Of a DNA stretch of 64,000 nucleotides, positions 24,560 through 56,346 are shown piece by piece (the first letter of the stretch is position 1; the number at the start of each line of letters is the position of its first letter). The DNA comes from Octopus sinensis (lineage: Eukaryota). The translations under genes and the position numbers were made by a program. Below the pieces are notes generated by a model that saw nothing but the letters and a program-made list of their open reading frames with translations, was not told the origin of the DNA and made no database searches. The stretch lies in the NCBI RefSeq assembly GCF_006345805.1, contig NC_043008.1, forward strand, positions 62,992,001-63,056,000. Direction: 5' to 3'.

Positions 24560-26190
24560 ATCATCATCATCATCATCATCATCATCGTTTAGCGTCCGTT
24601 TTCCATGCTAGCATGGGTTGGACGGTTCTACTGGGGTCTGTGAAGCCAGAAGGCTTCATCAGGCCCAGTCAAATCTGGCAGTGTTTCTACGGCTGGATGC
24701 CCTTCCTAACGCCAACCACTCCGTGAGTGTAGTGGGTGCTTTTTACGTGCCACCCGCACTGGTGCCAGACAGAGCTGGCAAACGGCCACGAACGGATGGT
24801 GCTTTTTATGTGCCACCGGCACGAGGGCCAGGCGAGGCTGGCAACGGACACGAAACGGGGCGGTGCTGGCAACGGTCGCGAAACGGAAAGTTCTCTTACA
24901 TGCCACCGGCACTGGTAACACATCTGCAATTTCCATTGATCGATTTCCATTGATTGATTTCGATTCTGATCCTCACTTGCCTCAACGGGTCTTCACAAGT
25001 AGAGTTTCGACATGCCACCGGCACTGGTAACACATCCGCAATTTCCATTGATCGATTTCGATTCTGATCCTCACTTGCCTCAACACGTCTTCACAAGTAG
25101 AGTTTTGTGTCCCAAGAAGGGAAGGTATGCATACGTAGGCTGGCTCCATCCCATGTAGAAGGCCACGAGTTATGGACTCACTTGTCCTGCCGGGTCTTCT
25201 CGCACACAGCACACTTCCAGAGGTCTCGGTCTCTAGTCATTTCCTCAGTGAGACCTAAAGTTCGAAGGTCATGCTTCACCACCTCGTCCCAGGTTTTCCT
25301 GGGTCTGCCTCTTCCACAGGTTCCCTCAACCGCTAGGGTGTGGCACTTTTTCACACAACTATCTTCATCCATTCTCGCCACATGACCATACCAGCGCAAA
25401 CGTCTCTCTTGCACACCACAACTGATGCTTCTTAGGTCCAGCTTTTCTCTCAACGTACTTACACTCTGCTGAGTGTGAGTACCGGCATTACACATCCACC
25501 GGAGCATACTGGCTTCATTTCTAGCGAGCTTACACATATCCTCAGCAGTCACGGCCCATGTTTCACTGCCATGTAGCATGGCTGTTCGTACACACGCATC
25601 ATACAGTCTGCCTTTCACTCTGTGCGAGAGGCCTTTTGTCACCAGCAGAGGTAAGAGCTCTCTGAACTTTGCCCAAGCTATTCTTACTCTAGCAGTTACA
25701 CTTTCAGCACACCTGCCCCCGCTGCTGACTTGGTCACCTAGGTAACGGAAACTATCAACTATTTCTAGTTTTTCTCCCTGGAAAGTGACGGAAGTTGGTC
25801 TCAGAGAATTTTCAGTGTTTATTGTTCCTCAGCATCTGCCACATACAAAAACCATCTTCCTAGTTAGCCTTCCTTTGACATTGCTGCATCTCTTATGTGT
25901 CCATAGCTTACACTTGGTGCATCTTATAGAGTTTCTACCTACACCTTTTCTACAGATCGAGCAGGGCCATCTACCTGAAGGTGTTTGTGATTTGTCTACC
26001 TTCCTACTGATTATGACTTTGGTTTTAGCTAGATTGACTCTGAGGCCCTTCGATTCTAATCCTTGTTTCCACACCTGAAACTTCTCCTCCAGTTCTGATA
26101 GCGACTCAGCAATTAGAGCAAGGTCATCAGCATAGAGGAGCTCCCAAGGGCATCCTGTCTTGAATTCCTCCGTTATTGCCTGGAGGACTA
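24560..26190 (-). mobile_element. 5'-truncated RTE LINE
   Basis: Minus ORF remnant 26190-25178 (YADD, PHD-like finger, RRLRWYGHV, GRGRPRKTW) with an internal stop; 3'UTR with repeat units ending in (GAT)n. Confidence 0.93.
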
Positions 26191-29360: not shown

Positions 29361-29880
29361 ACAGAGTGCAATGGGTAAATTGTCACCATTTTATATTTTC
29401 AACTTCGTGTATGCATATTGTTTGTTTTTGACTTTGTCGACTACACATTATTGTAGGGTTAGTTTGGCACTGTCTGTCAGGAAAAACAGTACCATGACGC
29501 AATTCACTCTGCTATAAATTTGGAAACTACATGCTGTATTGTTTGGCATTAATGCCAGCTGCTCCAGTATGAACATTTCAGAGTTTTTGGGTGTCAATCT
29601 AAGGACAGTGAAATCTGAGGACATGTATCAAGAGTGTTAAAAATCAAACATGCAGTCAACGTCACGGTGTTTGGAGTGATCACTAGTGATGGTGACATTA
29701 TGCCTCCATTCAACTTTCCACACAGCCTCAGACTCAACATGGAGAATTACATGAAGTGCCTGGAGGAGGTAGTGCTGCTCTGGGTTAAGAGGTTGGCTGC
29801 TAGAAGACCCAATGTCTGGCAACAGGATTCTGCACTATGTCACATAAACAGGAAAACCCAGTCATGGCTGCTAGAAAATG
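29361..29880 (+). pseudogene. Internally deleted Tc1/mariner (maT/DD37D-like) transposon
   Basis: TA-CAGAGTG start; KHAVNVTVFGVITSDGDIMPPF...LEEVVLLW...VWQQDSALCH...TQSWL. Confidence 0.8.
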
Positions 29881-29904
29881 TGCCTGCACCAATATATATA
29901 TATA

Positions 29905-31447
29905 TAGCCTAGTCACCTGTATAGTTAATCAGGTGATACATGAAGGAGTCATACCCAATGACTGGTGTAGCAGCATAATAGTCAACTGCTACAAAGGTAA
30001 AGGTGATGCCCTAGATACAAATAATTACAGAGGTATCAAGCTGTTGGATCAGGTGATGAAGGTTACAGAGAGGGTCATAAGCCAACTAATTAGAGAGAGA
30101 GTTAGTTTAGATGAGATGCAGTTTGGTTTCATGCCAGGGAAAAGTACCACTGATGCTATATTCCTGGTAAGGCAGCTGCAGGAGAAATACCTAGCCAAAG
30201 ATAAGGCCCTGTACCTGGCTTTTGTTGACATGGAGAAAGCCTTCGACAGGGTCCCCCGATCCCTCATATGGTGGTCAATGAGGAAACTAGGAATAGAAGA
30301 ATGGTTAGTGAGAGCTGTGCAAGCCATGTACAGGGACGCTGCTAGTAAGGTGAGGGTTGGAAATGAGTACAGTGAAGAATTCCGGGTAGAGGTAGGGGTC
30401 CACCAAGGCTCAGTCCTCAGCCCCCTCCTATTTATCATAGTCCTCCAGGCAATAACGGAGGAATTCAAGACAGGATGCCCCTGGGAGCTCCTCTATGCTG
30501 ATGACCTTGCTCTAATTGCTGAGTCATTATCAGAACTGGAGAAGAAGTTTCAGGTGTGGAAGCATGGTTTAGAATCGAAGGGCCTTAGAGTCAACCTAGC
30601 TAAAACCAAAGTCGTAATAAGTAGGAAGGTAGACAAATCACAAACGCCTTCAGGTAGATGGCCCTGCTCGATCTGTAGAAAAGGTGTAGGTAGAAACTCA
30701 ATAAGATGCACCAAGTGTAAGCTATGGACACATAAGAGGTGCAGCAATGTCATAGGAAGGCTAACTAGGAAGATGGTTTTTGTATGTGGCAGATGCTCGG
30801 GAGCATTAACCTCTGAAAATCTGCAGAAAACAACTTCCGTCACTTTCCAGGGGGAAAAACTAGAAGTAGTTGATAGCTTCCGTTATCTTGGTGACCAAGT
30901 CAGTAGTGGGGGTGGGTGTGCTGAAAGTGTAACGGCTAGAGTAAGAATAGCCTGGGCAAAGTTTAGGGAGCTCTTACCTCTGTTGGTGACTAAAGGCTTC
31001 TCGCTCAGAGTAAAAGGCAGACTGTATGATGCATGTGTGCGAACAGCCATGCTACATGGCAGTGAAACATGGGCCGTGACTGCTGAGGACATGCGTAAGC
31101 TCGTGAGAAATGAAGCTAGTATGCTCCGTTGGATGTGTAATGTCAGTGTTCATAGTCGACAGAGTGTAAGTACCTTGAGAGAAAAGTTGGACCTAAGAGG
31201 AATCAGATGTGTGCAAGAGAGACGATTGCGCTGGTATGGTCATGTGGTGAGAATGGATGAAGATAGGTGTGTGAAAAAGTGCCACACCCTGGCATTTGAG
31301 GGGACCTGTGTAAGAGGTAGACCCAGGAAAACCTGGGTCGAGGTGGTGAAGCACGACCTTTGAACTCTAGGTCTCACCAAGGAAATGACCAGAGACTGAG
31401 ACCTATGGAAGTATGCTGTGCGTGAGAAGACCCGGCAAGACCAGTGA
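29905..31447 (+). pseudogene. RTE-clade reverse transcriptase (5'-truncated LINE ORF)
   Basis: NYRGIKLL, QFGF, AFVDMEKAFDRV, GVHQGSVLSPLLF, YADD, FRYLG, RRLRWYGHV; two premature TGA codons near the C-terminus compared with the minus-strand copy. Confidence 0.95.
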
Positions 31448-54196: not shown

Positions 54197-54592
54197 TCTT
54201 TACTCTACTCTTTTACTTGTTTCAGTCATTTGACTGTGGCCATGCTGGAGCACCGGCTTTAGTCGAACAAATCGACCTCGGGACTTATTCTTTGTAAGCC
54301 CAGTACTTATTCTATTGTTCTCTTTTGCCGAACCGCTAAATGACAGCGACGTAAACACACCAGCATCGGTTGTCAAGCAATGCTAGGGAGACAAACACAG
54401 ACACACAAACACACACACACATACATATATATATACATATATATGACAGGCTTCTTTCAGTTTCCGTCTACCAAATCCACTCACAAGGCATTGGTCGGCC
54501 TGGGGCTATAGCAGAAGAGACTTGCCCAAGATGCCACACAGTGGGACTGAACCTGGAACCATAGCAAGCTACTTACCACACAGCCACTCCTG
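54197..54592 (-). mobile_element. SINE family A
   Basis: Homolog. Confidence 0.88.
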
Positions 54593-54881
54593 ATGAAATA
54601 CTGAAAATTCAGTCTGTAATATGTCATTTAAGTTATAAGATATACACATTTATCAGAAAAGAAGATTGTCACACAATTATTGTTTACACACACAATAAAT
54701 TTATGTGTGTGATTGATTTACTGGATGAACCACTTTATAAAATCCATGTTCACTCAAAAAAATTTTACCACCATCTTATTTTCCATTTTCTCAATATAAT
54801 GGTAATACAACCATAGCTTTTATTCCCATGTAATGAACCTGAGAAAACATCAAGCATAAAGCTTAGAGATTTCGAAGTGCG

Positions 54882-55421
54882 TGTAGCAGCTCTGCGTCTG
54901 ATATTGGCTTGCATGCGAATATACATTTCTCCATTTCAAAGTTGGCTCAATTGACTTTGTGTGGTTGCACCTTTTGTGTCATTCTCTGTGATTGGTCAGA
55001 ATGGACCGTTTCCTTCTGCTTCCAGTTTGGCATTTGTATAAAGTGTGACAGTCACCATTTCTCACTAGAGAGGTTTTCTTCCTTCACTTTAGAACTCTCT
55101 TGGCACATAGTTCTTTCACTCATGTCAACAAGTTGTCTCGATCAGCCAGCGGACCAAACAAACAATGTGGTCTTCTTGGAGGCATTCTTGTGCACACTAC
55201 TAGCGCTGCAGTTGCCTCCCTGTTGTTTCATTCTGGACCAACCAACCAACCAACCAACCAGCCAACCATCCATACTGGAAGAAGGTTTTAGCCAAGCATC
55301 ACACACTCAACTATCAGACACACTTACAGACCACTAAAAGTGTTGAGCATTTGGCCAAATATTGGTGGCCCTGACGTGATTTGAACATGCAAACTTCTGA
55401 TCTGGAATCAGAGCTGCTACA
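54882..55421 (+). mobile_element. Solo-LTR-like insertion ending in antisense tRNA-Trp sequence
   Basis: 13-bp perfect terminal inverted repeat TGTAGCAGCTCTG/CAGAGCTGCTACA, TSD TGCG/TGTG, ATTGG boxes and TATAAA inside. Confidence 0.8.
55363..55420 (-). pseudogene. tRNA-Trp(CCA) 3' three-quarters including the CCA tail
   Basis: Minus strand TCTGATTCCAGATCAGAAGTTTGCATGTTCAAATCACGTCAGGGCCA-CCA; about 5 differences in 50 nt from the metazoan tRNA-Trp sequence as recalled. Confidence 0.85.
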
Positions 55422-55914
55422 TGTGCATTTCTGAAGCACTCATAAGATCAGATAAAATCTAAGTCAGCCAAAAGAGAACGCCCATCACTAAGCACAGGGG
55501 AAAGCCAATTACTGGCCTAAAATCCAGAGAACCAACAGCTCCAATACCAAACAGGTCAGACTGTATGGATGCTGTTGATCATTGGCCCCCATGCATGGAA
55601 AGCAGCAGGAAAGGCAGCAGTAAGAGTCTAGGTTGTGAGTCCAAGTGTTATCTGTGATAAATGAAATAGTAGCCTTTGTTTTACTGCAAAATTAACTCTT
55701 TCAAACACATTCACACTGAATGAAAACAGCTTTTGTTTCTCCATATATTAAGCAGACACTTTTTATTACTATTCTTGTATTTTTACATAGGCTTGATGTG
55801 ATAATAAATTATATTTCGAGTTTCTATTTACATGTTTTGCTATACTTTCTTTACATAATGTTGTTTTAAATTAACGAAGCTCAAAATGTCCAAATATTCA
55901 CATTTATTTTTTTG

Positions 55915-56346
55915 CTCTTTTACTTGTTTCAGTCATTTTGACTGTGGCCATGCTGAAGTGCCAACCTTTAATCAAAGGAAGCAACCCCTAGAGTTATTCT
56001 TTGTTAGCCTGGTACTTATTCTATCGGTCTCTTTTGCCGAACCACTAAATTACAGGGACGTAAACACATGAAGATCGGTTGTCAAGCAATGATGGGGGAC
56101 AACCACAGACAGAAACACACAAATACACACACACACACACGCGCACACACACATGCACACACACACATATGCACATATATATATACGACAGGCTTCTTTC
56201 AGGTTCCATCTGCCAAATTCACTTACAAGGCTTTGGTCAGCCTGAGGCTATATTAGAAGACACTGGCCCAATGTGCCACACAGTGGAACTGAACCCAGAA
56301 CCATGTGGATAGGAAGCAAGCTTCTTACCACAAAGCCAAATCTGCG
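55915..56346 (-). mobile_element. SINE family A
   Basis: Diverged homolog. Confidence 0.85.

Follow-up and report, generated by a model that had tools for sequence, protein, structure and literature searches.

Among the known systems closest to the element reported here are members of the CsRn1 lineage of Ty3/Gypsy retrotransposons, including PwRn1 and AgCRs, which are described as having a primer-binding site (PBS) for tRNA-Trp, 4-bp target-site duplications (TSDs) and LTR termini of the form TGT...AAA or TGT...ATA (PMC2582038). The use of a tRNA primer has been followed biochemically in other systems. According to a study of HIV-1, plus-strand synthesis copies the primer past the PBS and normally halts at m1A58; minor stops, position 37 among them, lie deeper in the tRNA, and the over-extended products cannot make the normal second jump (PMC13191261). 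Likewise, dead-end strong-stop DNA of the plus strand (+sss DNA) from Ty1 and Ty3, in which the primer is also copied past the PBS to modified bases, is reported to accumulate in Ty particles through repeated priming at the polypurine tract (PPT) (PMC5371799). Both m1G37 and m2,2G26 are described as causing stops and misreading by reverse transcriptase (RT) (PMC5066629), and m2,2G26 is given for 127 of 160 eukaryotic tRNAs with G26 (PMC10275265). Aberrant proviruses with one bad end have been reported, in which template switching at short homology leads onto viral sequence in either orientation (PMC5041404). Small-RNA sequence is also associated with the LTRs of the Helenus, Ajax and Cassandra TRIMs, described as multi-copy, two-LTR elements that carry boxes A and B inside both LTRs, unrelated to the primer (PMC10886601). 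In addition, a long CCA-bearing tRNA copy at a Gypsy PBS is found in cqgypsy_1 of Culex, a full element with two whole tRNAs and a 26-nt duplication, which its authors read as an insertion (PMC3286476).

The window analysed here is a stretch of 64,000 nucleotides of the Octopus sinensis genome (contig NC_043008.1, positions 62,992,001 to 63,056,000). It harbours an insert of 540 bp (54882-55421) with inverted termini identical at 13/13 positions and flanks TGCG/TGTG. Similar to the CsRn1-lineage elements, the insert has a tRNA-Trp PBS, a 4-bp TSD and LTR ends TGT...AAA. However, it has only one LTR, carries a tRNA tail, ends in U3 on both sides and is missing the internal region. By its PBS, TSD and LTR ends, the LTR appears to fit the CsRn1 lineage. 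The order U3-R-U5-PBS followed by mature-tRNA complement beyond nt 58 is that of over-extended +sss DNA, with stops and misreading seen at the level of the class and by position only. In contrast to the HIV-1 and Ty intermediates, described in vitro or in particles, the copies studied here are fixed germ-line insertions with an extra stop at G26 and rescued ends. We propose, with a probability of roughly 0.78, that the insert is a one-off integrated dead-end product of reverse transcription, composed of the 478-bp LTR, a 50-nt copy of tRNA-Trp and an inverted copy of the LTR start.

Table 1. Features of the insert and its flanks, in window positions.
Feature	Position	Strand	Basis
Host repeat, left part; decayed piggyBac-like transposase remnant (weak label)	54679..54877	+	69-85% to six paralogues
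Left TSD, TGCG	54878..54881	+	empty site shorter by 4 bp in paralogues L032, L034
Single Gypsy-type LTR, 478 bp, TGT...AAA	54882..55359	+	10 solo copies with both ends
3-nt spacer from U5 end to PBS	55360..55362	+	same spacer in L016, L018
18-nt PBS complementary to the CCA end of tRNA-Trp	55363..55380	+	compared with tRNA-Trp gene L029
Probable read-through copy of primer tRNA-Trp, nt 58 back to nt 27, stop right before G26	55381..55412	+	45/50 versus gene complement over 55363-55412
Second U3 end: the LTR's initial 13 bp in inverted copy	55409..55421	-	13/13 identical; single copy in genome
Right TSD, TGTG, one CpG-type change	55422..55425	+	same empty-site comparison
Host repeat, right part	55426..55720	+	69-76% to the same six paralogues

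Comparison of the insert with the tRNA-Trp gene, numbered from the ARAGORN fold, revealed a 50-nt complement of the mature tRNA, identical at 45/50 positions, which extends as far as nt 27, in the anticodon stem's 5' strand. The tail opens with the complement of CCA in the exact PBS register, 3 nt past the U5 end; the tRNA genes lack CCA. Both A58 and G37 are copied without error in this tail, which counts against the scheme proposed below. At the very end of the insert, 9 nt match the tRNA at 5/9 positions and the inverted LTR start at 9/9, and the four bases 55409-55412 are common to the tRNA copy and the inverted U3, forming a 4-nt microhomology. The terminal CA derives from the inverted U3 copy and not from the tRNA, though the tRNA D-arm resembles that U3 end. 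The LTR ends at 55359, since the solo copies of the family stop at 478 bp; the tRNA tail consequently lies outside the LTR, and box A is absent from it. The initial annotation of this DNA had recognized the tRNA-Trp PBS, which agrees with the gene, and had read the last ~58 nt as tRNA-Trp complement into the D-arm. The long CCA-bearing match holds, but the alignment carries it over 50 nt only, and two further claims fall away: the tRNA part is not within the LTR, and the terminus is not built from tRNA, since its last 13 nt are the inverted LTR start. Searching the window with ARAGORN found no tRNA, and Rfam gave a sub-threshold tRNA match of 25.2 bits.

The boundaries of the insert were examined against the host repeat. 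In six paralogues both flanks were matched and the insert was not. At the empty site, two of them (L032 and L034) have exactly 4 bp fewer than the flanks in the window; therefore, the TSD of the window insert is real. The right junction was bridged by one contig per run in 4/4 runs, with 0-4 differing letters, and the left junction in 2/4 runs among the pieces shown; the four runs carry four organism labels and come from three studies, and one of them is possibly the source of the assembly. Therefore, the insert is no assembly artefact, and it is old. The 540-bp extent, the 13-bp inverted termini and the 4-bp TSD given at the outset are thus borne out by the empty-site paralogues and the contigs. 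It had also been stated that removing the insert with one TSD copy restores the frame of a piggyBac remnant. Translated separately, the flanks do fit one continuous frame (LRDFEV / ISEALI in the window versus LRDFKMNISESL in L032), but the name has sub-threshold matches to PF13843 behind it (E 0.012 and 0.029, in 2/9 fragments, none of them from the window), and with Pfam support below the cut-off only, the host repeat resembles a remnant of piggyBac type. It is flanked by a SINE-like repeat that is present in two copies (window about 54210-54590 and 55910-56340) and holds a CA/TA microsatellite at its centre. Elsewhere in the window, long open frames at 29804-31360 (+) and 25181-25828 (-) resemble by eye pieces of a non-LTR retrotransposon reverse transcriptase.

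A genome DNA search with the 540-bp insert yielded at least 46 matches (40 of 54 candidates scored) of two kinds: LTR-like copies of 73-93% identity, which cover the query from position 1 up to about 480, and genes or tails of tRNA-Trp, which cover about 476-539. Ten solo LTRs of the form TGT...AAA retain both ends, with the TSD matching at 4/4 in seven, 3/4 in two and 2/4 in one; together with the empty site, this agrees with the 4-bp TSD typical of Gypsy that had been noted before. The junction of tRNA to terminus gave one genome match at up to 3 mismatches. The junction of U5 to PBS is present in only three family copies, the window, L016 and L018, and continues differently in each: L016 has a 42-nt tail followed by a truncated fold-back, the remainder of whose inverted arm was not found in the 10 kb past it, and L018 has a degenerate PBS with a stretch behind it that is single-copy in the genome. 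Neither a two-LTR element with PBS, PPT or gag-pol nor a full-length coding parent of this LTR was found among the at least 46 matches (40 of 54 candidates scored) or behind the L018 PBS. The family may already carry a name in Repbase or Dfam. Two of its solo LTRs, L011 and L013, are fold-backs free of tRNA. Each is bounded by two U3 ends, the TSD matching at 4/4 in the first and 3/4 in the second, and both switch near LTR position 460.

The initial annotation had explained the insert as a mobile family in which a tRNA copy became the fixed U5 end, either a single-LTR mini-element or a TRIM with a tRNA in its LTR. Perfect TG..CA inverted ends with a TSD are what such a family would present, and inherited tRNA tails do exist in this genome, at six loci sharing a 32-nt tail and the sequence behind it. 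However, the junction occurs once, the solos end at the 478-bp LTR end rather than at a tRNA-derived CA, the three U5-PBS copies diverge, and a second LTR, a PPT pair and box A are all absent, which refutes a mobile family in this assembly and leaves it highly improbable. Identity with a Helenus-like TRIM was also rejected, as no two LTRs surround a PBS-PPT core, the tail stops at nt 27 and it is missing from the solos. Different from the TRIMs, the tail in the window is the primer itself, outside the LTR and in a single copy.

The source genome, 2.7 Gb in size, was searched with a 28-nt pattern for CCA and the tRNA-Trp complement; 81 hits were obtained, against 0 in the control. The 48 hits starting with TGG or a one-letter variant were examined, and the remaining 33 were classed as genes from their first letters and excluded. 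All 48 are CCA-bearing tRNA-Trp tails of 24-51 nt. Most adjoin an LTR-like end, the ends representing five or more multi-member families as well as several singletons, and two (L099 and L102) lack an obvious upstream LTR end. Nine of the 48 tails end at position 39 (before G37), three at 50 and one at 51 (G26), and none further. With five of six inherited-family loci and three loci ending below 29 left out (n = 40), and against a background of 0.065 per base, stops at 39 occurred in 9/22 tails at risk (p = 5e-6) and at 50 in 3/4 (p = 0.001); the tested positions were chosen after viewing the data, though they are those predicted by known chemistry. The base opposite A58 is wrong in 10/48 tails, compared with 29/907 other non-CpG cells (p = 8e-6). 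With an independent pattern for the anticodon arm, 56 hits were obtained (control 3). Those inspected numbered 18 and consisted mostly of tRNA genes, decayed genes or chance matches; a new tail was present in one of them, L197, in which A58 is misread, one base is skipped at G26 and 8 more tRNA letters follow. Both copies that pass G26 are altered there, L197 by the skip and L095 by a substitution that is also explicable as CpG decay. Metagenome contigs gave four hits, two stopping at 50, one at 49 and one (L154) running 69 nt and called a tRNA gene, and 0 hits were obtained in the viral contigs searched. These positions suggest that the tails likely stop where the tRNA is chemically modified. 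The modified bases in this animal's tRNA-Trp would then be m1A58, m1G37 and m2,2G26.

Normal short PBSs were also recovered. Among exact-PBS loci, 28/30 extend only 19-21 nt, and by eye 11 of the 100 listed of 226 exact PBS hits coincide with tails. Two loci, L143 and L150, are Trp-primed two-LTR Gypsy elements with RT, RNase H and integrase; both are young, with LTR pairs 98.7% and 100% identical, and their coding regions are frameshifted. A pattern for the tRNA-Lys(TTT) PBS gave 15 hits, 12 of them with a gene-like start, and none of the 3 inspected had an LTR-type tail.

Based on these data, we propose the following scheme for the window insert. Plus-strand strong-stop DNA likely ran past its normal stop at A58 of the primer tRNA-Trp. 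The CCA-bearing tail in the PBS register, which points to a mature tRNA, supports the origin by plus-strand read-through suggested in the initial annotation. Having passed A58 and G37, the molecule likely stalled at a methylated G26. Its last four bases would then have paired with U3 bases 10-13, and a template switch at this 4-nt microhomology would have allowed copying back to the LTR start. The second strand could have been completed by re-priming at the copied polypurine tract or by a second displaced plus strand. The resulting double-stranded product, with two U3 ends, was likely inserted by the element's own integrase in a concerted integration. The true stall may lie further in: the microhomology is short, and the D-arm copy that results from the G26 skip of L197 is almost the same as the inverted U3 end. 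Because the skipped product nearly equals that end, a read of about 58 nt into the D-arm, whose copy would have annealed to the similar U3 end and been corrected accordingly, has to be weighed. The skip with 8 more tRNA letters in L197 and the 5/9 tRNA matches left in the last 9 nt of the window copy agree with it. However, the last 13 nt follow the inverted U3 start letter for letter, and L054, L099 and two metagenome hits stop at 50 with no likeness to an inverted U3. We consider it quite improbable; it is a variant of the best explanation and differs only in the stall point.

The sequences following the tails were sorted into classes. A complete second integrase end was found in 6/48 loci, being an inverted U3 in the window, L045, L047 and L054 and a regenerated U5 end in L039 and L104. 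Their TSDs match at 3/4 in the window, 3/4 in L045, 4/4 in L047, 2/4 in L054, 4/4 in L039 and 4/4 in L104. A match of at least 3/4, expected by chance at 0.06, is thus reached by five of the six two-ended loci (p = 5e-6). L047 has the same design in another LTR family, with a 37-nt tail and a 63-bp inverted U3, and L045 is a full fold-back. L054 has a 50-nt tail and, despite a complete inverted arm, a TSD of only 2/4, which argues against the proposed scheme. Incomplete fold-back arms follow the tail in 4/48 loci (L016, L046, L095 and L096), and in 6/48 the tail runs into gag or pol (L040, L043, L050, L051, L052 and L090). An apparent TSD at L051 was rejected because gag-like sequence follows the tail. 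Another 6/48 loci (L056, L058, L064, L065, L093 and L097; also L126) have in common a 32-nt tail and the downstream sequence, with differing LTR ends and repeated PBS-like units behind the tail; judged on this shared sequence, the read-through tail seems to have been inherited within a lineage. The remaining 26/48 tails fit no class, and a second end was not identified in them.

A one-ended integration might account for L054 and many of the 26 unclassed tails. Here the integrase would have inserted the normal U3 end, while the read-through end would have been extended by host repair on the U3 of the same element and then linked to the chromosome. This route is reported for retroviral DNAs in which one end is bad; through short homology, that end is often fused to viral sequence, in either orientation, but the same report describes long duplications or deletions as the usual result (PMC5041404). 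In the window, an exact integrase end, placed at the first LTR base and accompanied by a TSD of normal length, forms the second terminus, the empty site differs by exactly 4 bp, and exact ends are likewise found in L047, L039, L104 and L011. One-ended integration, the main rival, is thus unlikely for the window insert.

The contigs and the tails also bear on a rearrangement after insertion, in which the interior of an ordinary element was exchanged for a LINE-made retrocopy of a tRNA or lost to gene conversion from a tRNA gene. The same genome does contain a LINE-type processed copy: L228 (1501-1580) holds a whole tRNA-Lys(TTT) retrocopy with CCA, a short A-tail and about 13-bp direct repeats as a long TSD, and A58 is misread in it. 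In contrast to L228, an A-rich tail and a long TSD are absent from the window insert, and its identity as a LINE-processed tRNA pseudogene was rejected. Moreover, the tails always stand in the PBS register after a U5 end, the same right junction occurs in the contigs of four runs, and a rearrangement leaves unexplained why an inverted U3 end abuts the original 4-bp TSD. A rearrangement is thus extremely improbable, and integration of a rescued read-through product, as proposed above, remains our preferred reading.

The window copy, itself old, inert and single, belongs to a class of reverse-transcription accidents that recurs and is informative about mechanism. The single steps are known from HIV and Ty biochemistry; full-text searches, which reached few subscription and older papers, found integrated read-through tails nowhere described as a genomic class. 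More tentatively, at somewhat less than an even chance, Trp-primed Gypsy elements may routinely rescue and integrate read-through strong-stop DNA across animals, giving a class of single-LTR, tRNA-tailed and sometimes inverted-repeat-bounded insertions. The ends and errors of the tails would then form a germ-line fossil record of primer methylation at A58, G37 and G26, and tails could become inherited, opening a route to tRNA-bearing LTR elements and SINE-like heads. Over-extended plus-strand DNA has been treated as a dead end, and the exact integrase ends and TSDs found here suggest template-switch repair and germ-line integration. As an in vivo readout of RT stalls and errors on the natural primer, the tails can also serve in animals for which tRNA modification data are lacking. 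In annotation, one LTR enclosed by TG..CA inverted ends does not necessarily indicate a new family or a MITE.

An intermediate of the tRNA-tail kind has been proposed for the birth of tRNA-derived SINEs, and such tails are possibly relevant to tRNA-bearing TRIMs as well. Ohshima et al. reportedly put forward in 1993 a model of SINE origin from strong-stop DNA with its primer tRNA, and Colicelli and Goff are said to have described in 1986 a retroviral circle with tRNA sequence between the LTRs. Similar to both, the tails join the 3' part of the tRNA with CCA to the reverse of U5 in DNA. However, they stop short of box A and show no SINE amplification.

Other arrangements were noticed at related loci. 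In L095 (G000:C25:2846759-2846848), two U5 ends stand head to head via tRNA-Trp sequence, with duplicated flanks; one strand is copied about 65 nt into the D-arm, and the switch falls at a 6-nt match. This structure is compatible with intramolecular as well as intermolecular switching and does not separate them. L142, L119, L138 and L144 are short two-LTR elements with large internal deletions, and in L142 the PBS directly abuts the RNase H region, which suggests mis-targeted second jumps with no read-through. Tandem PBS-like repeats lie right behind the PBS in L049, L059, L061, L091, L094 and L127. In addition, about 20 tRNA-Trp genes are clustered at about 69.58-70.14 Mb of G000:C6.
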